Shown piece after piece: positions 12,654 to 41,825 of a stretch of 41,825 nt of DNA. Made by a program: the position numbers and the translations under genes. Origin of the DNA: a virus. The number at the start of each line of letters is the position of its first letter. The first letter of the stretch is position 1. Below the pieces are notes generated by a model. It was not told where the DNA came from, did not search any database, and saw only the letters and a list, made by a program, of their open reading frames with translations. The stretch lies in IMG/VR virus record IMGVR_UViG_3300045974_000095, positions 1-41,825 of that record, one strand, 5' to 3'.

Positions 12654-13015
12654 GCCACCACCTCCAGATCAGTGTCCTCGCTGCGCCAGATATCTTCCCG
12701 CACGCGGCGGGGGAGGATGATGCAGCCCTGACTGGCCTCGCCGGGGAATTTCACGCTGTCGCCGTGGACCAGAAAGCCGTCACGCCCAAAGGTCTCGGTG
12801 GGCGGCTTCGGGGCCAGCCGGAGGCAGAAGGGGCCGTGGCCCCTAGAATCGAACACCGCGATGATGGCCCAGAGCCCCTGGGGGATGGGCCCTTCGCACT
12901 TGCGATCCTGGCACTCCGGGCGGTTCTTGGCTTCCCCACAGCCGGAGTAACCCGTGGCGTGGAACTGGCCCTCCGGGTTGGTCAGCGCCCCCGTGCTCTG
13001 TGAGAAGCGCCACAT
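12650..13015 (-). CDS. DUF2778 / Tlde1-like L,D-transpeptidase-fold (YkuD-like) enzyme; endolysin candidate.
   Basis: YSGCGEAKNRPECQDRKCEGPIPQGLW and LVHGDSVKFPGEASQGCIIL give the His...S-x-G-C catalytic signature of the YkuD/Tlde1 fold. There is no signal peptide and the holin gene is adjacent. Confidence 0.55.
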   Translation of the reverse strand: MWRFSQSTGALTNPEGQFHATGYSGCGEAKNRPECQDRKCEGPIPQGLWAIIAVFDSRGHGPFCLRLAPKPPTETFGRDGFLVHGDSVKFPGEASQGCIILPRRVREDIWRSEDTDLEVVA

Positions 13016-24435: not shown

Positions 24436-24777
24436 CTAGGGCTTGTGGATCTGGTGGATGGTTCGCTCGATGGCTTCACGCCGCTCACGTCTGTCGTTCT
24501 GCCCCTTCCTGATCGCTTCCCTGTTACGGGCGTCCTGGCCCCAGGTCTGCTTGAAGTCGTCGGCCATCGCGAGCCCTCGGGACTTCATGTACTCGCGGTG
24601 CTTCTTCCTCGAACCGATGTCGACGCCGTCGGTGGCGGCGGTGTTCTCGTAGAAGCGCCCTGCCAGGATTGGCGCGTGGAGGGCCTGCTTCTCCTCCAGG
24701 GCGTAGTCCAGGTCGACGACCGCCACGAATCCGAACTGCGAGGCCTTCGGGTGCCCCGGCTTGTAGACGTATCTCAC
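24436..24777 (-). CDS. Hypothetical head-module protein.
   Basis: The protein is 113 aa. The GTG start overlaps the portal stop (GTGA). The C-terminus is basic. Confidence 0.45.
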   Translation of the reverse strand: MRYVYKPGHPKASQFGFVAVVDLDYALEEKQALHAPILAGRFYENTAATDGVDIGSRKKHREYMKSRGLAMADDFKQTWGQDARNREAIRKGQNDRRERREAIERTIHQIHKP

Positions 24778-26933
24778 TTGTCCCCCTTCTTGGCAGGCTT
24801 CTCCTTCGCCTGCTGGAGCTTCTGCTTGTGCTGCGCGTCGGCCTGCTCGAGCGCCATGTCGCCCTTCTTCTCGTCGAGGGCAGACTGCCGCGCCTGCCCC
24901 TGGATGTCAGCCTCCATCTGCCGCACGCTGAGTTCGTGATCCGCCTGCGCTTTGGCGATGTCGATCTGCGCCTTCTGCTGCGCGACGGCCAGGGTGAGCT
25001 CGCCCTTCTGCTTGTCAATCTCGAGCCCGAACCTCTGGGCCAGCAGGTTCATCTGGTTCTCCTGCTGCTTCATCTGCAGTTCCATCTGCTTGATCTGCAT
25101 GTCCATCTGCGCCTGCTGCTGCGCGATCTGCATCTCCATCTTGGCCTTCTCGATCTCCGGGTTGGGCGGAGGCGGAGCGTTGGCGGCTTGCTGCTGAGCC
25201 TGATCCGCCTGCACCACCATCTGGTCAAGCACCCCTTCGATCGACGCCCCGCCCCGGAATCCCGCCATGGACCACTGGAGCATCTGCAAGAGGTAGCGTG
25301 CCGACCAGGGAGCGCCCTGGATGATGGGGGCGCTGCTCTGGAGGAACTGCGCCACCGCCAGGAGGAACTCGGCCCGTTCCTGCTTAACCGACGCCATGTC
25401 GGCCATCGCCACCGACTCGGGCTTCACCTCGATGCGGTACTGGTAGAAGTCCGACTTGATCAGCTGGACCGCCTGCATCGCCGAGTTCTGGTCTGCGCCC
25501 ATCATGTACTGGACGTTGGACTGCTTGACGATGGTCTCCGGGTCGTAGTGCTTCGAGATGATCTCCGCCTTGATGGACTGGGCGTCGCTGGCGAACCGCG
25601 CGAACTCGTTCTGAAACTCCTGCACGCGGGTGGAAGCGAACTTGGCCTTGAGGGCCTGCTCGGTGGCAGTCGCCCCTGCGGTGCTCTGGCCGCGCATGAT
25701 ATCGCTCATGCCCGTGACCTGGAAGAGCAGCGCCATCAGCTCCGTACGGTACTCGCGGAGCTTGTCGAGCGCGTTGACGAACATCTCGAGCGGGAGCCAG
25801 TCGATGACCGCCGCCAGCCCACCCTTCTCCTTGAACATGGCGAAGTTGTCGGTGGGGATGAGTTCGTTCTGGATGGCCTCGGACAGCACCCGCTTGATCT
25901 CGTCGCTATTCTTGTCGTACACGCCGCGAGCTGCGATGGCGCGCTCGAGGTTGGTGATACGCGACGACACGTTGTCGACCTCGTCGTAGAGGTCCTGGGC
26001 CAGCGTGAAGTCCGGCGTGGGGATGAGCTTGGCGGTGGTGAGGTTGGCGAACATCGGCCGGGGGATGGGCCAGAAGCCCTCGAGGCCGAGCGTGTCCTTC
26101 TTCTCGTCGAGGATACGATCGTAGCCCTCGACCCACCAGTAGATCTTCTTCTCCTCCTTCGACCAGATCTCCCATACCTCGGCTCGCTGCCAGGGCTGGT
26201 TCTTCTCGTCCTCCATGACGGCGGTGCTGGCCTTGGAGTGATCCCGGTTGGCCGTCATCGGCACGAGCTTGTAGTGCTCCGGGAACCGCTTCTTCAGCTG
26301 GTCCTGCGTCATGGGGTTGCGGAAGGCCACCCACCGGACCTCTTCCCAGGTGCGGCACGGGCTCCAGCGGAAGTCGCGCCAGTTGACGTAGTCGGTGTCG
26401 ACGCACTCGTACTTCTTCACCGTCTTCGTGTACTTCGGCGCCAGCTCCTGGCCGGTCACAGGATGCGTGATAGCCGGGATCTCCTTGTCCTCGAACTCCG
26501 CCTCGTAGCGGCAGCGAACCACGCCTAGTCCGGGAAGCAGTCGGTCGGACAGGGCGTTCTCGAGCGCCTCGGCGTAGGTGTCGTCGTCCTTCTCGATATC
26601 GGTGTTCAGGAGACGCTGGAGCATCTCGCCAGCGTACCGGGCTACGTCGTCGTTCGGATCAGCGAAGCGCCGCTTGACGTCCACCTGTGGGGTCTTCCCG
26701 TAGAGGAGCGCCCGCAGCGTCTGGACATTGGCGGTGAAGAGGTTGACGCGCGTGTTGAGCATCGGCATGCTCTCGCCGTCACGGTCATCGATGAACCGCT
26801 TGATGATCCGGTCACCCCGCTCGGTCCAGCGCTCCTGGCCCTTCTTCGCGGCCTGCATCTCGATGTTCCAGAGCTGCGCCTTGCCGACAGGAGTGTTGGC
26901 GAACTGTGCTTTGTTTTCGATCATTTCGGCCAT
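24774..26933 (-). CDS. Portal protein with a long C-terminal coiled-coil extension.
   Basis: The protein is 719 aa from ATG 26933, which overlaps the TerL stop by 1 nt (TGATG). The position and size fit a portal, and there is a conserved central region. The last ~150 aa are Q/K/E/A-rich heptad-like sequence. Confidence 0.85.
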   Translation of the reverse strand: MAEMIENKAQFANTPVGKAQLWNIEMQAAKKGQERWTERGDRIIKRFIDDRDGESMPMLNTRVNLFTANVQTLRALLYGKTPQVDVKRRFADPNDDVARYAGEMLQRLLNTDIEKDDDTYAEALENALSDRLLPGLGVVRCRYEAEFEDKEIPAITHPVTGQELAPKYTKTVKKYECVDTDYVNWRDFRWSPCRTWEEVRWVAFRNPMTQDQLKKRFPEHYKLVPMTANRDHSKASTAVMEDEKNQPWQRAEVWEIWSKEEKKIYWWVEGYDRILDEKKDTLGLEGFWPIPRPMFANLTTAKLIPTPDFTLAQDLYDEVDNVSSRITNLERAIAARGVYDKNSDEIKRVLSEAIQNELIPTDNFAMFKEKGGLAAVIDWLPLEMFVNALDKLREYRTELMALLFQVTGMSDIMRGQSTAGATATEQALKAKFASTRVQEFQNEFARFASDAQSIKAEIISKHYDPETIVKQSNVQYMMGADQNSAMQAVQLIKSDFYQYRIEVKPESVAMADMASVKQERAEFLLAVAQFLQSSAPIIQGAPWSARYLLQMLQWSMAGFRGGASIEGVLDQMVVQADQAQQQAANAPPPPNPEIEKAKMEMQIAQQQAQMDMQIKQMELQMKQQENQMNLLAQRFGLEIDKQKGELTLAVAQQKAQIDIAKAQADHELSVRQMEADIQGQARQSALDEKKGDMALEQADAQHKQKLQQAKEKPAKKGDK

Positions 26934-28369
26934 CAGATTCTCCTGCGCTGCTGCATTCTGCGCGAGTGATCCTCGAAGAGCTGCTCGAGGTGGAAGGAAT
27001 GGTGCAGAGGCTTGGCAATCGGCTCGACAACCTTGGGGGTACGGTTCTTCTTGATCTTGTCCTGGAAGATTTCCGAGACGCGTACGACGCACGCCAAGTA
27101 GCGGAATGAGTCAGCTGCGTGCGACGCCCAGTCGTGCTCAGGCTGCGATGAAAAGGTCTTGGCTTCCTCGTCGTAGTCGTAGTGATACTGGCGGAGTGCC
27201 TCGAGGCCCTCGTTGACGCGGGGGTGGAATCGTATCGGCTGTTGGAGCAGCCAGCGTCCAGCCTGGATGCCGTCTAGCAGAGGCATGTTCGGACCGACGA
27301 CCACCTGCCCCGGCCACTTCCTCAGCATCTGGTTCAGGATGGACTGACCGGACGAAAGTGTCACCTGCCGTGCGTCGTGCGGAAGCCAATGCTTGACGTA
27401 CTTGTACGGCTTCGAGTCGATCAGGTCGAAGTAGTGGGATAGGGGCTTTCCGGTTTCCTCGTAGTAATCGATGATGTCCACGCCCCCGTCACGGAACTGC
27501 CAGAACCAGATGGCGGTTGAGTCGGTGATGCCGAGGTCCCATGACGTGAACACGTCGGAGAAGTCGTGGTCGAACTCCGGCATTCCGTCGACTTCGATGA
27601 GCCGGTTGATGAGGTCACCCCAGATAGCTCCGACCAGCGCCGCGTTCCAGTCACAGTCGTACTCCTGCGCCACAAGGGCGTCGGGCATACCGTCGGACTT
27701 CTCTTCGTCCATCACTTCATCGGCGGACTTGTAGTATTCCCCCTTGGCGTTCTGCCACTCCGCATACGCACCAGTATCCCGCAGGCGCTGGACTTCGCAG
27801 AACCACATCGGATCCTTGACCGCTGCGTCGTACAACTCCTTGGCGTGGTTCCGTCCTCGAGGCGTGGTGATGTACGACTCCCAGCCACCGTTCTCGCGGA
27901 GCATTGGGCGGATAAGGTTGCGGGCCCTCGGGTTGGAGATGGCGTACTCGGAGTAGACCACACCGACAGGGCCAGCGCCCACCACTTCGATCTTGTCCGA
28001 ACCCAGGAGGCGCCAGATCGAGCCGCACTTGAGCTCGAGCATCATCTGGGACTCGTCCTTCTTCTTGATGATCGAGCCAGCCCGCTTGATGTCCGAGAAC
28101 CCGGGGAACACGTTCTCCATGATGCGCTTGCCGTCGCGCCTGAACCCTTCCCAGATCGCCTTGCGTGCCTGGGTGAACGAGGGGTAGATGTGCCAGTAGA
28201 CTCCCTTGCGCTGATGGGCCAGCTTGACAGTCTGGTGCATGGCCGTCAGGTCCTTGCCGCCTCGGCGGTGGACCACCCACAGGGCCTTCTTACCTCCCGC
28301 GTCGAAATACCTCATGTATCGGGACTGGTAGTCCCGAGGCGTGAAGTCGTTGGGGAGGGAAACCTTCAT
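26933..28369 (-). CDS. Terminase large subunit.
   Basis: DYQSRYMRYFDAGGKKALWVVHRRGGKDL is a Walker A-like motif, and a nuclease domain follows (DLGITDSTAIWFWQ...HWLPHDA...). ATG 28369 lies just after the upstream stop. The listed ORF start at 28396 is a TTG. Confidence 0.9.
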   Translation of the reverse strand: MKVSLPNDFTPRDYQSRYMRYFDAGGKKALWVVHRRGGKDLTAMHQTVKLAHQRKGVYWHIYPSFTQARKAIWEGFRRDGKRIMENVFPGFSDIKRAGSIIKKKDESQMMLELKCGSIWRLLGSDKIEVVGAGPVGVVYSEYAISNPRARNLIRPMLRENGGWESYITTPRGRNHAKELYDAAVKDPMWFCEVQRLRDTGAYAEWQNAKGEYYKSADEVMDEEKSDGMPDALVAQEYDCDWNAALVGAIWGDLINRLIEVDGMPEFDHDFSDVFTSWDLGITDSTAIWFWQFRDGGVDIIDYYEETGKPLSHYFDLIDSKPYKYVKHWLPHDARQVTLSSGQSILNQMLRKWPGQVVVGPNMPLLDGIQAGRWLLQQPIRFHPRVNEGLEALRQYHYDYDEEAKTFSSQPEHDWASHAADSFRYLACVVRVSEIFQDKIKKNRTPKVVEPIAKPLHHSFHLEQLFEDHSRRMQQRRRI

Positions 28370-28370
28370 G

Positions 28371-29702
28371 TTAGTACCAGATGCAGTACGAGCCAATCTG
28401 CGCCGTGTGAGCTGCGGCGGCAGATGGGGCCATGACGAGACTAATCGTGCCCGTGGCGTTCATCACGCCACCGATCTGGATGGTGTCGATAAACACGCGG
28501 GCGGCTCCGCCCGTGATGACGTTGGCCGTGCATCCCGCCGCGCACGTCGCGGTGGCGAGGGCGTTCGTGGACTGAAGTGCCTCGGTGCGGGCGGGGAGCG
28601 TACCAGCGAGCCCGATGACTGCGTAGGTGTTCGCAGTCGTTACCGTGCCACTAGACTGAATCCCGTAGCGCGGCTGATTCACCGCAGAGGGCCGCGTCAT
28701 CAGGATGGCGCAGCGCCCGCTGTACGGAGCCCCTGCGGCGTAAGTCCCCGAGGTCATCGGTACTCCGCCAGCCCCCACGATTCCGAGTGTGTTCGCCACG
28801 GCAGACGACGCCCAGGTGGCAGTGAGTTCGGTGGTGGTCCCGACTCCCGCCGCACCAGTAGGTCCTGTCGGTCCAGTCGGCCCTGTCGCGCCAGTCGGCC
28901 CCGTCGGACCAGTCGCGCCTACATCTCCCCTGGGAATAGTGAAGTTGAACGTGGCCGCAGACGAACTACCGCTGTTGGTTACGGAAGCGGAAGTGCCCGG
29001 TGCTCCGGTGGTGGTTGTTCCTACAGTGATCGTCGCTGCCGCACCGTTGGTCCCGTTCGATCCCGCAGGCCCGGTAGGTCCGGTCGGACCGGCGGGGCCG
29101 GTCGCCCCGGCTGCTCCCGCAGCCCCTGGAGTTCCTGCCGCTCCGTCTGCGCCTGCTGGACCAGTAGGGCCCGTCGCTCCGGCGGCCCCTGGCGCTCCAT
29201 TCGTCCCATTCGTACCCGCTGGACCTGTAGGCCCTGTCGCGCCTGTCGCACCTGGGGAGCCTGGAGCTCCCGGAGTTCCTGCGGCTCCTGCAGGACCCGT
29301 AGGGCCTGTCGGTCCGGTTGGGCCTGGAGCTCCGGCCGCTGCGGCGCATGTCGGCACTCCGGTCGCGGAGATCCCCGTGGCGAATAGCCCCGGAGTGCAG
29401 GCAGATCCGGCGTAGGCGCCGAGCGTCGTGGCCGTTCCGTAAGTCTGCAGGACTCCCGCCGAACCAGCGGGGGCGCTTCCTCCGCCACCGCCGGTCCCCG
29501 GAGGTCCCTGCGGACCAGGAGGCCCTTGGGGGCCGACCTGCATCGGCACCGTGATGGTGCCGTAGGTTCCCTGGACCTTGCAGTCGATCCCAGTTCCCGC
29601 GCAGTTGAGCGTGTTGACCACGCCCTTGTTCTGCCCCTCCTTCTGGATGGTCAGCTGCGCGGGATACTGCGAGAGCAGCAGAGCCAGGATGAGTGCGTTC
29701 AC
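28371..29702 (-). CDS. Collagen-like (G-X-Y repeat) fibre protein with a hydrophobic N-terminus.
   Basis: GTG 29702 overlaps the upstream stop (GTGA), with an AGGAA RBS. The N-terminus is [15 protein letters not shown]. Long [34 protein letters not shown]... tracts are present. The C-terminal domain is globular and Ala/Thr-rich. Confidence 0.7.
28851..29535. repeat. Interrupted 9-bp-periodic G-X-Y coding repeats (collagen-like tracts).
   Basis: GGNCCNGTN / GGNCCNGCN-type triplet-of-triplets repeats are visible at 28851-28930, 29041-29340 and about 29490-29535. Confidence 0.8.
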
Positions 29703-30745
29703 TTGCAGTTCCTGTAGTTGGCCGTCGCCGCGCAGATATTCAGGTCCTTGATGTATCCGGTGAACTGGAACCCCGCACCTTGGGTCTGTCCGATGCCCAT
29801 ATCTGAGGGAGATGCAGTCCACAACCCTGTACCCGCCCCGGATGTCGCACCAGAAACGACCACGCCGTTTATGCTCATGGTCAGCGTCCCGCTGGCGTTG
29901 CAGATCACGATACGCTGCGCGGAACCGTCCGCAAGCGTGCCCGTGATGCCCGAAGCCGCCACCTGCTTCGCTCCTGCCGCAGAGTCGTACACTTCGAAGA
30001 TCAGATCGGGCGGCGACTGGCGCAGTCGGAATGAGTTGATCCCACCATCGGGCCCGCCCTGCATCATACGGAATCCGCCGCCAATCGTGGTGGCCCAAGA
30101 TCGACCATCTGCGGGCTGGTATGTCGCAGCGAGACACCAGTTTGGCGTGAGGGTTGGGAACCCCAACGAGTTCATGTTGTCGGAAGACCGTGCCACCGCT
30201 CCAGCGGTGGTCGGGATGTAGGACGTGCGGAATGCCAGAGGTTCAACTTGCGCTCGTGTCGTGCCCGCGCTCGTGGTGACGAGTACCGTGCCCCCCACAG
30301 TCACCGTGAAGGGACAGACCACCCCAGACGCTACACCGGAGCAGGCCAGTCCGGTGACGGTAGCGGTTCCGGCCACCACGGTCAGCGTTCCACCGACCTG
30401 CCATGCGACGTGGCTGCCCGCGGACAGGGCGGCAGTTGCTTCCGTGGTCTTGGGGTGCGTGCCGGAGTTGAGCAGGTAGTTGGTGCTTCCGAACTCCACC
30501 AGATACCCCTGCGAGGCCACTCGGTAGAGCCCCGTCGCGCACGTCTGTACCGTCCCAGAGCCGTCGACGTAGGTCGCTGTCGACGCCCGCCCGAAGCCCA
30601 CCGTTCCGCCGGTAGGGTAGCATCCCGGCGTGTTGAATGCCCATCGGCGCGTGACGCGCTCCTGACTCGCACCGGGGGGCCCGTTGGCCCACCCCTGACC
30701 AAAGGCCAGGGATGGTAGGAGCAGAAGTAGTGCAAGGATCTTCAT
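29699..30745 (-). CDS. Predicted secreted protein with a lectin/LamG-like beta-sandwich character.
   Basis: The Sec-type signal peptide is [18 protein letters not shown], with an AGGAG RBS. The body is beta-rich and Gly/Thr/Ala-rich. The fold assignment is only an impression. Confidence 0.45.
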
Positions 30746-30753
30746 GTTGGCTC

Positions 30754-33045
30754 CTAGGTCGTACCGTCGGTGATGAGGCCGAGGTTGGCAAGCGCGGTGA
30801 GTAGGTTCTTCACCGACGCCTTGAGGTCCGCGACCGTCGCGGCGCTGTTGACGAGCCCGGTGACGGTGGGGCGCAGAATGGCGGTGGCCCCGATGAATCC
30901 GAGTTTGTTCCCCGCGATGCCAACATTCACCGAGCCGACGCCACCAGGACCGTTGCCCGCCGCGAGATTGATGTTGCCGCCCCGCGCCGGAGTCGCACCG
31001 TTCTTCCCGTCGCCCGCCGTGACCGAGAAGTCACCTCCGCGACCTGCGGCGGTGCCCGATGCCGACTGCCCACCGTTACCCAGGACGATGATGCCGTCGG
31101 CACCAGCTCCGGCATCTCCGGTCGTGCCCGTGAAGATGGTGTTGGCGTTCTGCCCCCGGAAGATGAACGCGGCAGGCGCGTCCACGCCGGGACCGTCGAA
31201 CTGTAGGTAGTTCGGTCCGCGAGCGTCGATGTGAAGGTGCGCCTTGATCTCATGCTCGCCACCGACCTCGGTGTCCACGCCAATGCCGAACATCGGCTGG
31301 AAGGAGGTATACTGCACCGGGAGCCCGCCCTGGACACCGTAGGGTTTGGAAACGAGGATCTTCGCCCCACCATTCCCGTACTGATGGTCGAACACCTCCA
31401 CCATGCGGAGCACGTCGGAGTTGGGCCAGTCGACGTAGGGCGTCAGGACGGCGTTGTTCTCCTGCCCCCCGTTGAGCATGTCGGGCCCAATCTTCGCGCC
31501 GCGAAGACCGCCGAGCCGGTAGTATCCCTTGTTCGCCCCGCCCATCGAGTTCGAGTGGCTGACGACGCCCTGATTCGACTGGCCCAACCACGCCGTGACA
31601 CCGTTCTCGTCGGCCTCACCGGGGCGGAAGTCGATGCCGTAGTCCAGAGCGCGACCGCCGACCATGTTGGTCGTCAGGTGATGCGCTCCCGCATTTGATC
31701 CCTGGCTGGTGAACAGGATGGGCGTTGCGGCGTAGTAGTATCCCGCGCCGTGCCCGTAGTATCCCGCCGCCGAGTACGTCCCGCCAGCCCAATACGTCGG
31801 ATGCGTGTCCGGCTGCTTGTTCAGGTTGCCGTCGCGGATCGAGATGTAGACCTTGCCTCCGTAGGTCACGAAGGCGCGGCGTCGGTAGGTGGTCCCCGCG
31901 CTGTACGCAGCGGCTCCGGGTTGCAGCCATTGAGCAGGCTGTTCGAAGTACGTCCCGGCCATGAAGATGCCGCGCGCGGGATCGCCATAGAAGGGCTCCG
32001 CGACGTGGCCCTGGAGGTCGCTGCCGATGATGGTCAGGTTGCCGATGGAGTTCTGGCGATTGATGATGTTGTTCTTGAAGTCGCCCGAGTTCCCCATGAA
32101 TCGTCCATCGATCCAGATGGCGTGACCCGCCGCGCCTGCCACCTCGCAGCCGATGATCAGAGAGTCGGTGGTGCCGCCGGTCTTGTCGCCAGAGAACCTG
32201 AATCCGTGGCTCTCTCCGTCGCCGCCGATAAAGATATTCGTGAAGCGGTGCCCGAAGGAGTTCCCACCACCACCCCCGGCTCCACCGCCTGCGATCGTGA
32301 TGGCCGCATCGTCCGCGCTCAGCGAGCGCGACAGGATGGTCAGGTCGTTGAACCAGTACCGCAGTCCGTTCCAGATGTTGATCGCCCCGACACCGCTCGC
32401 ATTGGCGGTCTTCAGGGTCAGATCTCGCATCGAGAAGTAGCCCGGATACGGACCCGGAGCGGCGGAGAGGTCGGAGTCGAAGTCGAACATCACTCCGGGG
32501 TTGACCTGGGTGATGAGCGAGCCGTGTCGGGAAGCGCCTCGCACGCTGTACCACCCCGTCCACTTCCCCGGACCGCCCGCCATCGCTTCGACAGGCGTGA
32601 CGAGCAGGTTTGCCCCGTCGGGGACTACGACGACGCGCCCGCCTTTCGTGGTGTCCGATCCCGGCGGCATCACGAGCTGCGCCGCGTTGATCGCCGCGCC
32701 GATGTCGGTGGTGGGGCTCCCGTAGTCCTCCGCGTGCATCACGTCGTTGGCACGGTCCGCGAGCGTGTGCGGAACACTCGAGCCGGTGGCCGTGACGAAG
32801 GACGACCCTGATGTTGCGATGGGCACGCCCGCCGCCACCAGAGCCGCATCCGCCGCGATGCGCGCTGCGGTCTCCGCTGCGATGACCTGAGCGTTGGCGA
32901 TCTCGGACGTCCGCAGGTCGAGCAGCGCCTCTCGAGTCTTGTTGGCGTCCCCCGCCGCCCACTCTGTGTTGGCACCGCTCGGGGGCCTGCTGTCCTGCTT
33001 TACGGGCGGAAGGACACTCGCCCCATCGGGAATGAAGGAGCCCAT
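30754..33045 (-). CDS. Tailspike with a right-handed beta-helix (pectate-lyase-like) domain; depolymerase candidate.
   Basis: The protein is 763 aa from ATG 33045. Evidence:
- N-terminal coiled segment (EIANAQVIAAETAARIAADAALVAAG).
- TLADRANDVMHAEDYGSPTTDIGAAINAAQ is typical of pectate-lyase-superfamily tailspikes.
- Gly/Asn-rich repeats are present.
- The C-terminal NKLGFIGATAILRPTVTG...LGLITDG motif is common in phage fibres. Confidence 0.7.
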   Translation of the reverse strand: MGSFIPDGASVLPPVKQDSRPPSGANTEWAAGDANKTREALLDLRTSEIANAQVIAAETAARIAADAALVAAGVPIATSGSSFVTATGSSVPHTLADRANDVMHAEDYGSPTTDIGAAINAAQLVMPPGSDTTKGGRVVVVPDGANLLVTPVEAMAGGPGKWTGWYSVRGASRHGSLITQVNPGVMFDFDSDLSAAPGPYPGYFSMRDLTLKTANASGVGAINIWNGLRYWFNDLTILSRSLSADDAAITIAGGGAGGGGGNSFGHRFTNIFIGGDGESHGFRFSGDKTGGTTDSLIIGCEVAGAAGHAIWIDGRFMGNSGDFKNNIINRQNSIGNLTIIGSDLQGHVAEPFYGDPARGIFMAGTYFEQPAQWLQPGAAAYSAGTTYRRRAFVTYGGKVYISIRDGNLNKQPDTHPTYWAGGTYSAAGYYGHGAGYYYAATPILFTSQGSNAGAHHLTTNMVGGRALDYGIDFRPGEADENGVTAWLGQSNQGVVSHSNSMGGANKGYYRLGGLRGAKIGPDMLNGGQENNAVLTPYVDWPNSDVLRMVEVFDHQYGNGGAKILVSKPYGVQGGLPVQYTSFQPMFGIGVDTEVGGEHEIKAHLHIDARGPNYLQFDGPGVDAPAAFIFRGQNANTIFTGTTGDAGAGADGIIVLGNGGQSASGTAAGRGGDFSVTAGDGKNGATPARGGNINLAAGNGPGGVGSVNVGIAGNKLGFIGATAILRPTVTGLVNSAATVADLKASVKNLLTALANLGLITDGTT

Positions 33046-33052
33046 TCGGACC

Positions 33053-33493
33053 TCAGTTGCAGGCGAAGTAGATCGTGAACGACCCGCCGGACACCGTACC
33101 CGCTGTCGGTAGCACCGCGATCCTTCCACTCGGCACGACGATCCACTTCCCGTCGAAGTGCTGGCATCGCTGGCCGGTGGTCGAGACCAAGGTCTGGTCG
33201 GGGTAGACGCCCCAGAGCTTGGCGGTCGCGTCCCAGGCGTACACGCTCAGCGTCACCGCACCGGTCACGGTGTTGGACGCAGCGGCGCAGGCGAAGATGT
33301 CGATGCCTCGCGGGCACTGATTCAGCTGCCACCCGAGCGCGGCGCTCGTGGCGTCCGTGAAGGGCGTTTCGGTCACGGTCGTGCAGACCACGTTCCCCGT
33401 GACGTTGTCGGCGTTGGTGGTCCACGTGCAAGTCGCCTGCGCCAGCGAGGCGGGGGCGAGGAGGAACAGCGCGAGCATCAGGAACTTCTTCAT
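33053..33493 (-). CDS. Predicted secreted Cys-rich small protein.
   Basis: The signal peptide is MKKFLMLALFLLAPASLAQA, with a GGAGGTGG RBS. The mature part has 8 Cys. The start overlaps the upstream stop (ATGA). Confidence 0.5.
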   Translation of the reverse strand: MKKFLMLALFLLAPASLAQATCTWTTNADNVTGNVVCTTVTETPFTDATSAALGWQLNQCPRGIDIFACAAASNTVTGAVTLSVYAWDATAKLWGVYPDQTLVSTTGQRCQHFDGKWIVVPSGRIAVLPTAGTVSGGSFTIYFACN

Positions 33494-33714
33494 GTGCCAC
33501 CTCCGACGGAAGCGGTGGCGCTCCCGGTCTTCGAGAACTTCGTGTCATCGGAGTCCATGTCGGGCTCCTTCAGATCGGGCTCCTTGTGGGACTTCCCTCT
33601 CAGCATCTTCGCCATCACCTTCTGGGCGGCGAGGCCCCCGCGCTTCACGGCACCCTTCACCATGTCGATGTCTCCTTGTACGGACTTCGCGTGCAGCTCG
33701 TCGATGTCGGCCAC
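33490..33714 (-). CDS. Small charged protein (hypothetical).
   Basis: GTG 33714 is preceded by AAGGGGGA and lies directly after the terS-candidate stop. The protein is 74 aa. Confidence 0.4.
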   Translation of the reverse strand: MADIDELHAKSVQGDIDMVKGAVKRGGLAAQKVMAKMLRGKSHKEPDLKEPDMDSDDTKFSKTGSATASVGGGT

Positions 33715-33715
33715 G

Positions 33716-34048
33716 CTAGTCCCCCTTGATGGTTGTGATCTCGATCTGCAGCCCACCATCCACGCCGACTTCCTGCTTGGGCTTGGCGATCGTGTGCTCC
33801 GCCTTGAACTTCAGCGCGCCCAGGATCGCAGTCGCGTTGCGGGGGGCCTGTCCCTGAGCGAGGCGCTGAATCATGGCAGCGTCCCCTGCGGTCAGGGTGA
33901 GGGCGTTCTTGGCTTCCTGATCCGTGAGCAGCGTGGCAAGCTCCTCCGCGGTCTGCTTCTGCTTTCTGACTCGCCGCTGTCGTGAGGCTTGGAGGAAGCG
34001 CTGCGTGTCGTCGAGCTTGCGCTTCTTCCTCGGCTTGTAGTCCTTCAT
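33716..34048 (-). CDS. First gene of the late operon; terminase small subunit candidate.
   Basis: The protein is 110 aa with a highly basic N-terminus (KPRKKRKLDDTQRFLQASRQRRVRKQKQ) followed by a helical segment. No other terS candidate is present. It is separated from TerL by four genes. Confidence 0.35.
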   Translation of the reverse strand: MKDYKPRKKRKLDDTQRFLQASRQRRVRKQKQTAEELATLLTDQEAKNALTLTAGDAAMIQRLAQGQAPRNATAILGALKFKAEHTIAKPKQEVGVDGGLQIEITTIKGD

Positions 34049-34174
34049 GTCCTGGTCATCTTTCACGTGGCTCTCCGTGTCCCAGACCGTTGAAATCGTT
34101 CGCGGCCCTCGGGACTTGGGGCCCACCGCCCGGGTCGCGCGAGCAGAGCGGGGTGAACCGGGGGGTGGGTGCTC

Positions 34175-34427
34175 TGGCCCGAGGCTTGCAGGCCTCAGCA
34201 CTCGGCACGATGTTTGCATGGCTCTGCACTCTGGCTCGCTCCTTGCATGTCCGTACTCTGGCTTGGGTCTTGCAGGGGATGCAAGGACCGGACCGACGCA
34301 CCCGGCCCCAAACTCGGCACGGACCTTGCACCCGGATCCGCGGGCTGGGAGCTTGGCACGGACCTTGCTAGCGCTCCCAGTCTGGCCTAACCCTTGCATC
34401 CCTCTGGGGTCGGCTTGATACTTGCAT
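34175..34427 (+). repeat. Tandem array (~28-bp period, 8 good units plus 1 degenerate) of sigma54-promoter-like units YGGCNN-N5-TTGCW.
   Basis: GG dinucleotides occur at 34176, 34204, 34233, 34260, 34316, 34355, 34384 and 34412. Each has a GC exactly 12 nt downstream, within TTGC(A/T). Units usually end in (A/G)CTC or AGTC before the next TGGC/CGGC. Confidence 0.75.
34354..34369 (+). promoter_or_regulatory. Best sigma54 (-24/-12) consensus match within the array: TGGCACG-gacc-TTGCT.
   Basis: It is an exact match to TGGCACG-N4-TTGCW. Near-identical copies are at 34315..34330 (CGGCACGGACCTTGCA) and 34203..34219 (CGGCACGATGTTTGCAT). Confidence 0.4.
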
Positions 34428-34440
34428 GGTACAACGGTCA

Positions 34441-34460
34441 GTGCGTAGAGCGCTACGCAC
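34441..34460. promoter_or_regulatory. Inverted repeat GTGCGTAG-agcg-CTACGCAC (candidate operator or activator site).
   Basis: It has 8-bp perfect arms. The half-site TACGCAC recurs in TTACGCACGG at 34595..34604 and 34684..34693. Confidence 0.5.
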
Positions 34461-34594
34461 TTTTCAAGTGTTACAAGTTACAGAGTTACATAGGGTAGAG
34501 CGGCTATAAGGCATTAATAAGATTAGACTATTTGTTACCATATACTAAGCGCTCTAGGCTGCCTAACTGTGCAACTGAGTAACTGCGCAGGGAT

Positions 34595-34693
34595 TTACGC
34601 ACGGCTAACCTACCGGAAAGACTAGCAAATACCCGAGAAGGGCGTATAGATCGCTACACGCCCCATCCGGGCAAACCTAGTGATTACGCACGG
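34595..34693. promoter_or_regulatory. Two direct copies of GAT(T)TACGCACGG, 89 bp apart, in the low-GC control region.
   Basis: TTACGCACGG occurs at 34595-34604 and 34684-34693. Nearby repeats are three GTTACA copies at 34470, 34477 and 34485, and TAACTG(T/C)GCA at 34564 and 34580. Confidence 0.45.
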
Positions 34694-34701
34694 ATAGAGT
34701 T

Positions 34702-34717
34702 TGGCATGGCCGCTGCA
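34702..34717 (+). promoter_or_regulatory. Sigma54-like promoter candidate for the early operon: TGGCATG-gccg-CTGCA.
   Basis: GG is at 34703-4 and GC at 34715-6 (12-nt spacing). The predicted start is about 34728, 57 nt upstream of ATG 34785. There are two mismatches to the consensus. Confidence 0.35.
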
Positions 34718-34784
34718 CTAGTCCCATCACACGCTGCCTGGCAGCAAGGGTCGCCCTGAGGCACCCTACCCAAAGGAGTCACAC

Positions 34785-35087
34785 ATGGCCACGAAGCCCG
34801 TTGTCCCCGCCACGACCGCCACCCCCGCCGTTGCCGCGAAGCCCGCCCGCAAGGGTATGACCAAGGAGCAGAGGGCCGCCTACGTCGCCAAGTCCTACGT
34901 CAACTTCTCGCCCACCACCCAGGCCACCATCAAGGTCCTGTCGGCCACCAACCCCAAGCGGGGCGACAGCGCCGCCCGGTTCGCGCTCTACACCAACGGC
35001 ATGACGGTGGCCCAGGCCATCGCGGCGGGCGTGTGGATGGCCGATATCCGGTGGGACGTGGCCCACAAGTTCATCGAGGTCGCGTAG
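34785..35087 (+). CDS. Early protein, paralog A, with the conserved C-terminal NPKR...RWDV domain.
   Basis: The RBS is AAAGGAG. The C-terminal TNPKRGDSAARFALYTNGMTVAQAIAAGVWMADIRWDVAHKFIEV is paralogous to the C-terminus of 35914..36435. Confidence 0.6.
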   Translation: MATKPVVPATTATPAVAAKPARKGMTKEQRAAYVAKSYVNFSPTTQATIKVLSATNPKRGDSAARFALYTNGMTVAQAIAAGVWMADIRWDVAHKFIEVA

Positions 35088-35093
35088 CACCCA

Positions 35094-35156
35094 GGCCGAA
35101 ACCCTAGCCCCCTCACGGGGGCGGGGTCGGTGGGTTCCGCCCACCCTGACGAGGCC
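35094..35156 (+). ncRNA. Type II hammerhead ribozyme, copy 1 (predicted cleavage after C35128).
   Basis: The elements, in order, are:
- GGCC-GAAA (35094-35101).
- Stem III, ACCC...GGGU, with inner CCCCC/GGGGG.
- GUC cleavage site.
- Stem I, GGUGGG-uuccg-CCCACC.
- CUGACGA (35146-52).
- GGCC pairing back to 35094-97. Confidence 0.8.
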
Positions 35157-35173
35157 AGACCGCCCCCAAGGAG

Positions 35174-35401
35174 ATGGTGATGGTATACGCGAAGCTGGTT
35201 GACGGCATTACGGCCCGGAGCGCGAACAGCGTGAAGCCCGGGATGCAGCTGAAAATCGGCAGCGACTGGTTCAAGGTGACCCGGGTATGGAGCGGCGTGG
35301 CCTCCCAGCGAAACCTGTTCTGCGTCGAGGTGGCCCTGCCCTCGGGCGACCACTACACGAACACCTACCCCGACTTCATGAAGGAGGTGTTCACCAAGTA
35401 G
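35174..35401 (+). CDS. Small early protein (hypothetical), flanked by hammerheads 1 and 2.
   Basis: The protein is 75 aa. AAGGAG lies at 35168-73, so ATG 35180 may be the true start. Third-position GC is high. Confidence 0.55.
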   Translation: MVMVYAKLVDGITARSANSVKPGMQLKIGSDWFKVTRVWSGVASQRNLFCVEVALPSGDHYTNTYPDFMKEVFTK

Positions 35402-35407
35402 CACCCA

Positions 35408-35462
35408 GGCCGAAAGGGGGGTCTAGCCCCCCTCCGCCCGTGATGCGGGCGCTGATGAGGCC
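35408..35462 (+). ncRNA. Type II hammerhead ribozyme, copy 2 (predicted cleavage after C35434).
   Basis: The elements, in order, are:
- GGCC-GAAA (35408-15).
- Stem III, AGGGGGG-ucuag-CCCCCCU.
- C17.
- Stem I, CGCCCG-ugaug-CGGGCG.
- CUGAUGA (35452-58).
- GGCC (35459-62). Confidence 0.85.
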
Positions 35463-35486
35463 AGACCGCCTACCGAGGAGATACCG

Positions 35487-35690
35487 ATGGCAGCCCGCCT
35501 GTATTCGCTGTTCGAGCGCCGAGATGGCCGTTGGGTGCGCATCTCGCCCCTGGCCTTTACGAAGGCCAACGCCGTGAGCATCTACCAGAACCTGCTGCTC
35601 GCCTACCCCCTGGGTGCCGCGAAGCACGAGCGAAGCCTGAGGGTGGTGAAGAGCTGCGACGAGCCCCCGGCGCAGCCCCGCATCGACTAG
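35487..35690 (+). CDS. Small early protein (hypothetical), flanked by hammerheads 2 and 3.
   Basis: The protein is 67 aa, with a GAGGAG RBS 7 nt upstream. Confidence 0.55.
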   Translation: MAARLYSLFERRDGRWVRISPLAFTKANAVSIYQNLLLAYPLGAAKHERSLRVVKSCDEPPAQPRID

Positions 35691-35697
35691 AACCGTA

Positions 35698-35796
35698 GGC
35701 CGAAACTCCACCTTACACGCACGGGCGCGCGAGCCCGACGGGGCAGCCCGAACAGGGCGGGTGGAGTCGGGGTGTGAGGCACCCCCTGATGAGGCC
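35698..35796 (+). ncRNA. Type II hammerhead ribozyme, copy 3, with a ~47-nt insertion in stem III (predicted cleavage after C35768).
   Basis: The elements, in order, are:
- GGCC-GAAA (35698-705).
- Stem III, ACUCCACC...GGUGGAGU.
- GUC cleavage site.
- Stem I, GGGGUG-ugagg-CACCCC.
- CUGAUGA (35786-92).
- GGCC (35793-96). Confidence 0.75.
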
Positions 35797-35840
35797 AATG
35801 ATAGCCGAACTCACGCCCCAAAAGGTACGCCTGACATCGC

Positions 35841-35868
35841 TTGCGTATGCTGTAGATCCGTGTATAAT
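35841..35868 (+). promoter_or_regulatory. Sigma70-type promoter with extended -10 (TTGCGT-N16-gTGtATAAT).
   Basis: It shares the upstream CATCGCTTGCG and the GTGTATAAT with the promoter at 37053. It lies inside the listed ORF 35761..36435, which argues for the downstream start at 35914. Confidence 0.5.
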
Positions 35869-35913
35869 GAGGTCATACTGGCAGGGTTGTTGTCCTGTCA
35901 AGGGAGCCGAAAG

Positions 35914-36435
35914 ATGGCCGAGTTGTGTCTGCTCTGTAACAAAGCGTTCCGAGATGGTCAGGCCATCGTGGCCCTTCCGACCGGACATGCTGCTCACCAA
36001 ACCTGCATCCAGGAGAGAAAAGCCATGGCATCTGCCAAGCCCGTCGTCGCCAAGCCCGTCGTCGCCAAGCCCGTCGCCCCCGCCGCCAAGCCGGTCGCCC
36101 CGGTGAAGCCGGTGGCCCCCGTGAAGCCCGCCGCCCCGGTCGCCACCGAGGCCACCCCCGTGGAGCCGAAGGAGAAGAAGGAGCGCGTCAAGCTGAGCGA
36201 CGAGGAGAAGGCCGCCCGCAAGGCGAGCCGGTTCGCCGCCATCAACGTCGAGGAGTTCCTCGGCAACACCATCACCCTCGCGGTCAGCGAGAACCCCAAG
36301 CGGGCCGGGTCCACCTCCGCCGCCCGCTTCGACCTCTACGTGAACGGCATGACGGTCGCCGCCGCGCTCGAGGCCGGCGTCACCGCCGCCGACGTCCGCT
36401 GGGACGTGGGGCACGGCTTCATCACCCTGGGCTAG
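35914..36435 (+). CDS. Early protein, paralog B: N-terminal Cys/His zinc-finger-like segment, Pro-rich AKPV repeat linker and C-terminal NPKR...RWDV domain.
   Basis: The RBS is AGGGAG. The N-terminus is CLLCNKAFRDGQAIVALPTGHAAHQTC. The linker is AKPVVAKPVVAKPVAPAAKPVAPVKPVAPVKP. The C-terminal ENPKRAGSTSAARFDLYVNGMTVAAALEAGVTAADVRWDVGHGFITL is paralogous to 34785..35087. Confidence 0.6.
   Translation: MAELCLLCNKAFRDGQAIVALPTGHAAHQTCIQERKAMASAKPVVAKPVVAKPVAPAAKPVAPVKPVAPVKPAAPVATEATPVEPKEKKERVKLSDEEKAARKASRFAAINVEEFLGNTITLAVSENPKRAGSTSAARFDLYVNGMTVAAALEAGVTAADVRWDVGHGFITLG
36034..36141 (+). repeat. Imperfect 15-bp / 12-bp tandem coding repeats (GCCAAGCCCGTCGTC and variants).
   Basis: GCCAAGCCCGTCGTC occurs at 36034 and 36049, followed by degenerate copies encoding AKPV/APVKPV. 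Confidence 0.7.
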
Positions 36436-39256: not shown

Positions 39257-41269
39257 ATGATCGAGGCGTTGGCGCGGGAGAAGTGGGAAAGTAGTGGGCT
39301 CGACGAGAACCAAGCGAGGGCACTCAAGCTGAAAGGGCTCACGGGAGACCAAGTCGCGAAGCTGGCACCGAACTTCCACAGGGTAGGGGCGCTCCACATT
39401 CCCTACTTCGACCCGAAAGGCACCCCCACCAAGTTCTTTCGTATCCGCTACCTCGAGAAGCTGAACGGCTTCGCGGGAGTAGTCGGCAAGCCGCAGAGGT
39501 ACGCGCAGCCGAAGGGCAGCCTGAACGAAGTCTACATGCCTCCGCTGCTCACCATGTCCTGGGCCGAAGTGCTCCAAGATGTGAACATCCCCATCTACAT
39601 CACGGAGGGCGAGCTGAAAGCGGCAGCCGGATGCTCGTGCGGGCTCGCTACCATAGGGCTCGGGGGCGTGGACGTGTGGCGAGCAGCCAAGCGGGGCATC
39701 GTGCTCCTGCCTGCGCTCGCCCAGGCCAAGTGGACCAAGAGAACGGTGGTGATCGTATATGACAGCGACGCGGCGACCAACCCCAACGTTGTCCGAGCTC
39801 AGCGACAACTGGCCGCCGAGCTCATGGCGCTTGGAGCCCTGGCAGCGGTCTGTTCTATCTCGCCTGGACCGCATGGCGAAAAGGTCGGGCTCGATGATTA
39901 TCTTATGGCCCAGGGGGCGGAGTCCCTCATCACGCTACTCAACTCTGCTCCGCTCTTTCCAGAAGCGGACGCGCTCTGGGGAATGAACGAAGAAGTGCTC
40001 TACGTCAAGTACCCTGGACTCGTGGTCACGCGCGCAGAGGGCGAGCGTATCAGCGCCCATGCCTTCGTGCATCACGTGTACGCGAATCACCACTACCAAG
40101 AGTCCAAGCCCACCAAGTCCGGGGGCATCGCCCTGGTGAACAAGCCGCTCGCCAAGCGGTGGATCGAATGGGAGCACAGGTTCGAAGTCAAGCGCATCAC
40201 CTACGCCCCCGGGAAGCCGCAGATCACTGACGATGCCTGGAACACTTGGCCAGGGATGGGCGTCGAGCCCGCTAAGGGTGATATCATGCCCTGGCAGAGC
40301 CTCCTGGACTACGTGTTCGCCTCGGCGGGGCCGGAGGAGCGGGAGTGGTTCGAAAAGTGGTGCGCCTACCCCATCCAGTACCCTGGCACGAAGTTGTTCA
40401 CGGCGGCGGTCATCTGGGGCCGATACCAGGGCACCGGCAAGACGCTCATCGCGTACACTCTCCGCAACATCTACGGTAAGAACTTCGTAGAGATCAAGTC
40501 GAACAACCTCGTAGGCAGCTTCAACTCCTGGGCGGAGAACCGACAGCTCGTGTACGGGGACGAAATCACCGGGTCGGACAGCCGCATCGACGCCGACAGG
40601 CTGAAGGGCATGATCACGAACGAAGAGCTCATGATCAACGCCAAGTTCCTGCCCGAATACGTCATCCCCGACTGCATCAACTACTACTTCACGTCTAACC
40701 ACCCGGACGCTTTCTTCATCGAGGACAGTGACCGCCGGTTCTTCGTACACGAGCTGGTGGGGCCGCCGATGGCTCGGGAGTTCTACACGAAGTACGATGC
40801 GTGGATGAAGGGGCCAGGGCCCGCAGCTCTGTATCACTACCTGCTGAGCCTGGACCTGAGCGACTTCGACCCCCGGGCACCTGCGATGATCACCAAGTCC
40901 AAGGCCAGCATGATCGTGGACGCCAAGAGTGACGTGGCGATGTGGGTGGTGCAGCTTCGGGAAGACCCCGATGCGGCGCTGCGTACTCTTGGGGAGCACA
41001 TCGCACAGAACGCCGAACTGCTCACTGCCACCATGCTCCTGCGGGCGTACGATCCCGAGGGCAAGGGGCGCGTCACCGTCAATGGCCTCTCGAGGGAGCT
41101 CAAGCGCAGCGGCTTCGTTCAGTGCAACTACGGCTCACCCATCCGTACCGCGACTGGACTTCAGCGCGTGTACGCCATCCGCAACATCGACAAATGGGAG
41201 GAAGCTTCACCAAGTGCCCTCGCTCAAGAGTACAACCGCGTATTCCCACCGCCCACGCAGAAGTTCTAG
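39257..41269 (+). CDS. Primase-helicase: N-terminal Toprim domain fused to a superfamily 3 (D5/P4-type) helicase.
   Basis: Toprim motifs are IYITEGELKAAA and VVIVYDSDAATNPNV. The SF3 NTPase has Walker A GRYQGTGKT, Walker B QLVYGDEI and motif C-like INYYFTSN. Confidence 0.85.
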   Translation: MIEALAREKWESSGLDENQARALKLKGLTGDQVAKLAPNFHRVGALHIPYFDPKGTPTKFFRIRYLEKLNGFAGVVGKPQRYAQPKGSLNEVYMPPLLTMSWAEVLQDVNIPIYITEGELKAAAGCSCGLATIGLGGVDVWRAAKRGIVLLPALAQAKWTKRTVVIVYDSDAATNPNVVRAQRQLAAELMALGALAAVCSISPGPHGEKVGLDDYLMAQGAESLITLLNSAPLFPEADALWGMNEEVLYVKYPGLVVTRAEGERISAHAFVHHVYANHHYQESKPTKSGGIALVNKPLAKRWIEWEHRFEVKRITYAPGKPQITDDAWNTWPGMGVEPAKGDIMPWQSLLDYVFASAGPEEREWFEKWCAYPIQYPGTKLFTAAVIWGRYQGTGKTLIAYTLRNIYGKNFVEIKSNNLVGSFNSWAENRQLVYGDEITGSDSRIDADRLKGMITNEELMINAKFLPEYVIPDCINYYFTSNHPDAFFIEDSDRRFFVHELVGPPMAREFYTKYDAWMKGPGPAALYHYLLSLDLSDFDPRAPAMITKSKASMIVDAKSDVAMWVVQLREDPDAALRTLGEHIAQNAELLTATMLLRAYDPEGKGRVTVNGLSRELKRSGFVQCNYGSPIRTATGLQRVYAIRNIDKWEEASPSALAQEYNRVFPPPTQKF

Positions 41270-41276
41270 GAGGCGT

Positions 41277-41825
41277 ATGTTCACCGAAGAAAGAGTGTTG
41301 GCGTTCTTCAACTACATCTACCAGCGCGAGCTGATTCGACAGGCCAAGGTCAACCTCGACCCGTGGCCCTGGACCGACGACCCCATCCTGCAGAAGTTCA
41401 AGTTCACCAACGTCAAGCGGAAGAACGACCGCACCACTCAGCACTTCATCAAGATATACAACGAGCACCTGGGGGCCGACCCGTCGGTCGCCCTCTACAA
41501 CTGCGGAGTGTTCCGGTACTTCGGCACGATGGAGTGGGCCAACGAGTTCGGGTGGTCCGACGCGCACCGGGGCTCGAAGATGATCGCCACCGCCGCCGAG
41601 ATGCTGAAGCACGGACACAAGGTGTTCACCGGCGCCTACGTCATCACGAACAGCGGGCGGACTGGGCCGAAGCACGTCGTGGTGGAGGAGTACCTCCGGG
41701 CGCTGTGGAAGAAAGCCGATCAGGTGGTGGGGATGATGCACCTGAACCACGCCTGGGAGGCCGGGTTCAACGAGCTGAAGAAGCTGCCGGGGTTCGCGGG
41801 CACCGGCTTCATGGCCAAGGAGGTC
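41277..41825 (+). CDS. 5' part of the wrap-around aGPT-Pplase-like hypermodification gene (continues into 128..445).
   Basis: ATG 41277 follows TAGGAGG and is open to the window end. The translation begins MFTEERVLAFFNYIYQRELIRQAKVNLDPWPWTDDPILQKFKFTNVKRKNDRTTQHF... Confidence 0.5.
   Translation, partial: MFTEERVLAFFNYIYQRELIRQAKVNLDPWPWTDDPILQKFKFTNVKRKNDRTTQHFIKIYNEHLGADPSVALYNCGVFRYFGTMEWANEFGWSDAHRGSKMIATAAEMLKHGHKVFTGAYVITNSGRTGPKHVVVEEYLRALWKKADQVVGMMHLNHAWEAGFNELKKLPGFAGTGFMAKEV
41699..41825. repeat. Second copy of the 127-nt terminal overlap.
   Basis: It is identical to 1..127. Confidence 0.95.

Follow-up and report, generated by a model that had tools for sequence, protein, structure and literature searches.

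We propose that a tandem array of short repeats in the only divergent control region of an uncultivated phage genome consists of recognition sites for the alternative sigma factor sigma-54 (RpoN), an identification that we regard as likely, and we judge it somewhat better than an even bet that the array serves as a battery of early promoters for the host sigma-54 RNA polymerase holoenzyme (E-sigma54). The array lies in the IMG/VR virus record IMGVR_UViG_3300045974_000095, all 41,825 nucleotides of which were analyzed and are called the window below. An earlier note on this DNA had described eight units at 34175-34427 whose GG and GC dinucleotides lie exactly 12 nt from each other, as in the -24/-12 layout of sigma-54 promoters, and had offered three options: a battery of promoters or a sink for sigma-54, iterons of a replication origin, or a packaging (pac) site. 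The first is the option that our results favor.

A search for GGC-N7-TTGC, where N7 is any seven nucleotides, recovered the eight units on the plus strand, starting at 34176, 34204, 34233, 34260, 34316, 34355, 34384 and 34412, at successive distances of 28, 29, 27, 56, 39, 29 and 28 bp. Elsewhere in the 41.8 kb, both strands included, the pattern occurred just twice (13256 and 15646), and its N8 version had zero matches within the array, so that the eight-unit structure with its fixed spacing was confirmed. What the earlier note took for a degenerate copy near 34289 is in fact a unit on the minus strand, read 34295..34280, which fills the 56-bp gap between units 4 and 5, forms an inverted repeat with unit 5 and faces the leftward structural operon. 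The claim that the units point toward the early genes consequently holds for the eight forward units and fails for the inverted one, and the array limits of 34175-34427 are correct for the units but leave out a further forward box at 34702-34717. The GG-N10-GC spacing is present in all eight forward units, in the inverted unit and in this proximal box. The sites, with mismatches counted against TGGCACG-N4-TTGCW, are as follows.

34175..34190, plus strand: unit 1, TGGCCCGAGGCTTGCA, 1 mismatch
34203..34218, plus strand: unit 2, CGGCACGATGTTTGCA, 1 mismatch
34232..34247, plus strand: unit 3, TGGCTCGCTCCTTGCA, 1 mismatch
34259..34274, plus strand: unit 4, TGGCTTGGGTCTTGCA, 2 mismatches
34280..34295, minus strand: inverted unit, CGGTCCGGTCCTTGCA, correct GG/GC spacing
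34315..34330, plus strand: unit 5, CGGCACGGACCTTGCA, 1 mismatch
34354..34369, plus strand: unit 6, TGGCACGGACCTTGCT, perfect match
34383..34398, plus strand: unit 7, TGGCCTAACCCTTGCA, 3 mismatches, GG and GC intact
34411..34426, plus strand: unit 8, CGGCTTGATACTTGCA, 3 mismatches, GG and GC intact
34702-34717, plus strand: proximal sigma-54-like box, the tenth site, TGGCATGGCCGCTGCA, ~70 nt 5' of the first early start codon and a candidate early-operon promoter

The perfect unit at 34354 had been recognized before; the units that miss by a single base number four (34175, 34203, 34232 and 34315) and not two. Genome-wide, only five sites had one mismatch or none and every one lay inside the array, whereas 100 shuffles gave a mean of 0.52 and a maximum of 3, a comparison with shuffled sequence of the kind proposed in the earlier note. 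Aligned in a fixed 28-column register, the eight units share only GGC and TTGC as invariant columns (7/28); across the other 21, pairwise identity averages 0.38. Invariant cores within otherwise diverged units indicate selection on a bipartite motif rather than recent duplication and show, as far as sequence comparison reaches, that selection within a unit is confined to GG(C), (TT)GC and the exact distance between them. A functionless chance cluster, or neutral duplication in tandem, would fit with the commonness of tandem repeats in phage intergenic DNA and with the 28-bp period that Tandem Repeats Finder reports at 34172-34263. Against it, units outside the seven core columns are about as unlike as random sequence, the observed site count was never reached by shuffles, the signal is lost in controls with N8 or N6 spacing, and relatives of the phage keep the cores while the spacers change; we consider this explanation effectively refuted.

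The window is a complete circular tailed-phage genome. Its opening 127 bases are repeated at 41698-41825, which identifies the assembly as circularly closed, with a genome size of ~41.7 kb and 63% GC, and 6.3 kb of it is identical to a contig assembled from SRR35489233. Gene calling based on GC content at third codon positions divided the genome into a plus-strand arm, which runs from 34785 through the end of the record to position 1 and on to 11135, and a minus-strand arm from 34066 to 11282. Given this two-arm layout, the 718-bp gap at 34067-34784, which holds the array, is the genome's only divergent control region.

Homologues of the proteins that flank the array were found on short contigs only. 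The first leftward protein (116 aa) is 87% identical in contig L167 and 72% identical in L168, both of which stop within the array; L164, from the same sample as L168, begins 253 nt 5' of the early gene and encodes an early protein that is 69% identical. Contig ends at the array are expected, since repeat arrays break short-read assemblies. Positions 1-23 of L167, the Logan contig of the closest relative, are an Illumina adapter (AGATCGGAAGAGCACACGTCTGA) directly after an array unit, an assembly artefact at the repeat. Where units of L167 and the window could be aligned, the boxes were identical at 27/28 positions, the N7 spacers at 15/28 and the linkers at 35/56, and whole-unit insertions or deletions (indels) separate the window from its relatives. 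Unit 1 has an orthologue in L167 (GGCACGAAGCTTGCA) and is missing from L168; unit 2 is identical in L168 and keeps its boxes in L167 except for one T-to-A change; unit 4 is missing from L168 as a whole-unit indel; the inverted unit is kept in L168 as CGGCATGGTTCATGCA and absent from L167; and unit 5 has the counterpart GGCACGACCCTTGCA in L168. The proximal box is found in L164 as TGGCACGGGCGCTGCA and in the more distant L002 as TGGCACGGCCTATGCA, 55 nt 5' of the homologous early gene. Over the 320 bp upstream of this gene L002, whose early protein is 40% identical, has four to five sigma-54-like boxes that face rightward, one of which includes a 15-mer of unit 7 (GCCTAACCCTTGCAT) in identical form. 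The expectation that related phages would share the array was thus borne out for L167 and L168, with boxes kept, and for L002, with spread boxes, and not for L003, L004 and Myxococcus phage Mx8. At 1565-1625 on its minus strand L003 has two strong sigma-54-like boxes, TGGCACAGCGCTTGCA and TGGCACGCGCATTGCT, which lie 40 bp apart and face leftward in a noncoding region of ~2.3 kb.

Similar arrays recur in other uncultivated phages. We searched IMG/VR for three consecutive (T)GGC-N7-TTGCA boxes with 8-20 nt between them, which returned 90 stretches. Among 359 unique units from 91 loci, the positions left free by the pattern read rTTGGCAYGr...TTGCAt, with A directly after GGC (+3) in 92% of units, then C or T (+4) in 95% and G (+5) in 70%, which matches the extended sigma-54 consensus. 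Unit spacing has its mode at 25-29 bp, as in the window, with almost no units closer than 24 bp; the largest arrays have 14 units, and the contigs that bear arrays span 28-66% GC. Arrays with diverged linkers numbered 84 at N7 spacing, five at N8 and zero at N6, and none at the two control spacings was sigma-54-like. In bacterial and archaeal genomes (596 Gb) the N7 pattern found 71 arrays; two were sigma-54-like, the remainder being ordinary near-perfect tandem repeats, and GGCAYG made up 2.4% of cellular units versus 63% in the viral set. Both exceptions are in Bacteroidota metagenome-assembled genomes (MAGs), and one of them, the 44.8-kb contig L098, has proteins common to the viral loci. 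The sigma-54-like arrays fall into about ten locus groups, which share no protein within 4 kb and span 33-66% GC. At the DNA level, neither 33900-34900 of the window nor two other arrays had a match among 50,697 cultured phage records.

Recurrence of one consensus across unrelated phages of such different GC content is readily explained only by a universal host factor. Together with the exact spacing that is required, the extended consensus and the restriction of selection to the core, it makes sigma-54 the probable identity of the sites and upholds the -24/-12 architecture recognized in the earlier note.

Forty-three of the loci (among L006-L094) form one uncultivated group with a common large terminase (TerL). 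The layout of this group is portal (~680 aa), TerL (~418 aa), M15-like peptidase, small AT-hook protein (~130 aa) and array; close relatives in culture are lacking, many contigs of the group stop at the array, and one contig that resembles its members (L098) was binned in a Sphingobacteriales MAG. The 37 small AT-hook proteins from these loci had no identity in cultured phages or Pfam. Some loci have arrays on both strands: L012 has them back to back, L067 face to face, and in L039, L049 and L058 they converge at a distance of ~1 kb; the convergent arrangements are hard to explain as simple promoters. In cellular contigs we noted seven sigma-54-like units at 342-580 of L110, a 383-kb Chitinophagales contig, three units with 24-bp spacing at 5670-5731 of L121, in a Ca. 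Puniceispirillum chromosome, and three sigma-54-like units in Macromonas (L103/L136); these may belong to prophages, which would then provide host assignments.

The same comparisons bear on the possibility that the units are sites for a phage protein, as origin iterons, a pac site or operators of an early regulator, with a coincidental resemblance to sigma-54 sites. Iterons are near-identical repeats of ~17-22 bp, and pac-site repeat boxes are known in SPP1 and P22. The array resembles both in its short direct repeats, its regular spacing, its noncoding position in the genome's only large noncoding region and its place beside an AT-rich stretch and the beginning of the structural/packaging arm; a trough of 37% GC and further repeats and palindromes follow directly downstream, the adjoining 116-aa protein is basic, helical and without an assigned family, and in 37 IMG/VR loci a small basic AT-hook gene, possibly a small terminase (TerS), lies beside the array and is followed by TerL. 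Unlike the array, iterons and pac boxes are normally conserved over their whole length, and here the 7/28 conserved columns are exactly the sigma-54 core. The extended consensus is, moreover, shared by unrelated contigs, which would not be expected of a phage-specific initiator or terminase and disfavors both the iterons and the pac site that the earlier note had offered. The window has no initiator gene adjacent to the array, the primase-helicase being 4.8 kb distant, and such boxes do not go with the wider family to which the downstream early protein belongs. The candidate terS named in the earlier note found no support, as the 116-aa protein matched no TerS family and TerL is 5.3 kb away (26933-28396); a TerS shared by array-adjacent genes was likewise rejected, since a profile of the 37 small AT-hook proteins matched no open reading frame (ORF) of the window. 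We therefore consider sites for a phage protein improbable.

How the units are used has to be read from their arrangement. Promoter function is favored by the way they are oriented and by their place where the early arm begins. In 42/45 arrays the 2 kb upstream are mainly coding on the opposite strand, and in 26/31 the 2 kb downstream are mainly coding on the motif strand, typically as small ORFs in series. This is the divergent layout of the window, and the trend is also seen in small independent groups. Under the promoter-battery reading, E-sigma54 would settle on the units as stable closed complexes, and with multiple high-affinity sites an entering genome would be more likely to capture the holoenzyme, which is scarce. 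These complexes would next be fired by a host enhancer-binding protein (EBP), the ATPase activator of sigma-54 promoters, bound upstream or acting from solution. Transcription of the early/replication arm, to the right, would follow, and the structural arm to the left may be served by the inverted unit. Sigma-54 closed complexes are reported to protect roughly 27-30 bp, and with a unit period of 25-29 bp the array may be packed as tightly as binding permits. In Myxococcota sigma-54 is essential and EBPs occur by the dozen, and rpoN is, as far as is known, present in all host groups suggested by the portal matches (Myxococcus and Proteobacteria). No EBP, sigma-54, sigma-70-family or RNA polymerase domain was found in any sizeable ORF of the window with Pfam or PHROGs, and a regular-expression search for the GAFTGA motif found none in 850 kb of array loci. 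Activation from solution is documented for EBPs that lack DNA-binding domains, as in the approach of PMC3844500.

Several observations weigh against the promoter battery. The nearest phages by primase, L003 and L004, and by portal, Mx8, have no array. Full GGCAYG is present in 3/8 window units, which makes them less canonical than many IMG/VR arrays, and units 7 and 8 have three mismatches each. No EBP site was recognized in the control region, where the repeat at 34105-34172 and the palindrome at 34441-34460 are candidates only. A unit that fired would start transcription at a +1 inside the next unit, and the open complex would occlude its neighbors, so that dense packing adds binding registers and not simultaneous initiation; it fits a role in capture or as a sponge at least as well as a battery. 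The orientation counts are not phylogenetically independent, with 43 loci sharing one TerL family. The DNA of the phage is probably hypermodified at thymidine, judging from the gene cassette listed below, and such modification could change how the T-rich -12 element is recognized on virion DNA. Only portal similarity, to Mx8 and Mx9, points to a host. Finally, a sigma-70 promoter (>=10/12 matches) lies within 250 nt downstream of 12/40 arrays (~30%), versus 5% of control windows, for example a perfect TTGACA-16-TATAAT 27 nt past the ninth unit in L057 (minus-strand orientation, ~5712-6060) and TTGACA-17-TATGAT in L047 (1831-2230); in both, the promoter stands 30-120 nt past the array and is followed by the first gene. 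Such promoters between array and gene imply that the array is not the sole early promoter in those phages. The window differs in having a conserved proximal sigma-54 box instead: across its control region (33900-34900) no sigma-70 promoter or terminator passed our scan, and a looser sigma-70 scan reached 8/12 matches at best.

A rival explanation, compatible with a promoter battery, is that the array is a sponge or decoy on which non-productive closed complexes of sigma-54 or E-sigma54 titrate the scarce factor and silence host sigma-54 regulons, such as those for stress responses, surface structures or, in myxobacteria, development, in a sink that grows as the genome replicates; in a variant, the bound complexes form a protein barrier between the divergent arms. 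Early transcription would then start at the proximal box or, in other phages, at a sigma-70 promoter. This explanation, which we hold to be rather unlikely, draws on the same evidence for site identity as the battery, and it would account for units set near the minimal footprint distance, for arrays of up to 14 units, for the separate proximal box in the window and the strong downstream sigma-70 promoters elsewhere, for the near confinement of arrays to viral contigs, for the lack of a phage EBP in the domain and motif searches, and for the both-strand loci, including face-to-face arrays that make little sense as promoters. A pure decoy, however, needs no orientation, yet most arrays point into the downstream arm and away from the upstream one; arrays always head an operon and are not scattered in noncoding DNA; and 8-14 sites per genome would be a modest sink unless copy number is high. 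More broadly, the tally of at least 53 sigma-54-like arrays in IMG/VR against two in the cellular genomes leads us to suggest, tentatively, that the arrays are a widespread phage-specific element whose main task would be to hold sigma-54 or E-sigma54 on phage DNA, whether as a sponge or as a landing pad that stores poised polymerase.

Comparison with known systems places the array closest to bacterial sigma-54 promoters, the textbook -24/-12 system with the consensus YTGGCACGrNNNTTGCW. Such promoters in cells are single, occasionally double, each with a dedicated EBP site. The array shares with them the GG and GC 12 nt apart, the extended consensus, the restriction of selection to the core and, in all but one unit, orientation to a downstream operon; it is unlike them in setting eight to nine cores head to tail at ~28 bp, in a virus, with no EBP gene detected and no EBP site recognized. 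Tandem early promoters of the T7 A1/A2/A3 type are sigma-70 promoters ~100 bp or more apart that need no activator. They too place several host-polymerase promoters in series into early genes, presumably for polymerase capture, whereas sigma-54 closed complexes stay silent until an ATP-dependent EBP acts. As a decoy, the array would recall 6S RNA, which sequesters sigma-70 holoenzyme; like it, it would hold a specific holoenzyme form inactive, but as phage-borne DNA aimed at sigma-54.

The nearest precedent in a phage is Pseudomonas phage YuA, for which three annotated -24/-12 promoters with promoter-trap activity are described (Ceyssens et al. 2008, as cited in PMC10914365). YuA lacks an RNA polymerase of its own, and none was detected in the phage studied here; both have a dUMP-hydroxymethylase-type gene, and YuA uses sigma-54-type promoters, as we propose for the window. 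The YuA sites differ in being single, weak and located in the structural region, and the YuA genome has no array and no coding-strand site within two mismatches of the consensus. In the literature that we searched, which covered few subscription journals, neither tandem sigma-54 arrays in phages nor sigma-54 decoys were described; PMC3391216 has sigma-54 only as the annotation of a regulator gene. This agrees with the remark in the earlier note that no such phage element had been described, the single promoters of YuA being the only precedent that we found. What appears to be new is the dense tandem array, sigma-54 promoters and single phage -24/-12 sites being already known.

Sigma-54 transcription is tightly gated, the polymerase at a single promoter being silent until its dedicated ATPase activator acts, and phages classically rely on sigma-70 promoters, on polymerases of their own or on proteins that appropriate sigma-70. 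To our knowledge, no phage has been described that hijacks an alternative sigma factor by offering it DNA as a sponge or landing pad. A control region with eight to ten sigma-54 cores would imply sigma-54-dependent early expression, sigma-54 titration or both and, if the promoter reading is true, infection would be coupled to host physiology through whichever host activators are active. Nor is the array a lone oddity: dozens of uncultivated phages bear near-consensus cores, as many as 14 in one array. Such arrays could serve as strong, compact sigma-54 binding modules and, in metagenomic phage contigs, as a sequence signature for early-region boundaries and possibly for sigma-54-bearing hosts.

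Genes placed in the two arms include the following.

26-445, plus strand: 5-hydroxymethyldeoxyuridine (5-hmdU) DNA kinase helical domain, in the thymidine-hypermodification cassette (26-4498)
442-1203 and 2983-3987, plus strand: two TET-associated glycosyltransferases, same cassette
1196-2152, plus strand: radical SAM/SPASM enzyme, same cassette
2270-3283, plus strand: thymidylate-synthase-like enzyme, same cassette
3881-4498, plus strand: HD/YfbR-like phosphohydrolase, same cassette
6630-8498, plus strand: family A DNA polymerase
12650-13015, minus strand: Tlde1-domain protein (L,D-transpeptidase-like effector domain), structural arm
20229-20966, minus strand: SU10-type adaptor, structural arm
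22175-23170, minus strand: major head protein
24774-27092, minus strand: portal, PHROG E = 3.5e-180, 51% identical to Myxococcus phages Mx8 and Mx9
26933-28396, minus strand: TerL, separated from the array by tail-fibre genes
28371-33129, minus strand: tail-fibre genes
28371-30137, minus strand: collagen-repeat tail fibre, structural arm
39257-41269, plus strand: primase-helicase

Genes for a PD-(D/E)XK nuclease and a SNF2 helicase are likewise on the plus strand, and a tRNA scan found none. The portal also matches phages of Proteobacteria, more weakly than Mx8 and Mx9.

Around the array, the control region holds four further elements, bounded by the first genes of the two arms.

33716..34066, minus strand: first gene of the leftward arm, 116 aa, basic, helical
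34105..34172, no strand: GC-rich imperfect inverted repeat that abuts unit 1 on its upstream side
34441..34460, no strand: perfect 8-4-8 palindrome GTGCGTAG-AGCG-CTACGCAC, just past the array, operator-like
34450..34549, no strand: GC trough, 37% GC against a genome mean of ~63%
34555..34700, plus strand: noncoding stretch conserved in L164, better kept than the adjacent 69%-identical protein
34785..35087, plus strand: 100-aa gene that opens the early/replication arm on the right; C-terminal domain conserved

The stretch 34100-34172 is identical at 63/73 positions (86%) in both L167 and L168, and the inverted repeat within it is a candidate enhancer, that is, an EBP site, or a candidate 5' leader hairpin of the leftward operon; an exact 22-mer from this GC-rich element was unmatched in metagenome and viral collections. 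The palindrome half-site TTACGCAC is repeated at 34595 and 34684. GTTACA and TAACTG each occur three times within 34430-34700, with the three GTTACA copies in the GC trough, which is possibly a DNA-unwinding/origin region or an operator region. The conserved stretch at 34555-34700 would be either a region upstream of the proximal box or a structured leader. RNA folding of 34430-34784 gave z = -3.1, and 34430-34700 as a whole could serve as operator or enhancer, origin or structured leader.

The leftward gene starts at 34066, where its homologues place it, and not at 34048 as had been thought. Its 116-aa product has no family match, showed no similarity by BLASTP to the protein upstream of Mx8 TerL, and gave an AlphaFold2 model (predicted local distance difference test score, pLDDT, 61; predicted template-modelling score, pTM, 0.24) too poor for use. 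On the rightward side, the proteins encoded at 34785-35087 and 35761-36435 (plus strand) have a common C-terminal domain of ~50 aa, NPKR..F.LY.NGMT...D.RWD..H.FI, and the second additionally has a RING-like zinc finger (PF10367, 25.6 bits). The C-terminal domain belongs to no Pfam or PHROG family and was found in 29 metagenome loci of 28-66% GC. We rejected the idea that the array travels with this early-protein family, as the 29 loci have no upstream sigma-54 clusters; their motif hits, at +83 and +182, fall on the NGMT(I/V)A codons.

An Rfam search of 33500-35500 found no match within the array and one downstream, a candidate type II hammerhead ribozyme at 35408-35470 (plus strand), in the 85-nt gap between the ORFs at 35174-35401 and 35487-35690. 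It scores 30.2 bits against a gathering score of 37 (E = 1e-4 on this short stretch), with an intact core (CUGAUGA and CGAAA) and two intact GC-rich stems.

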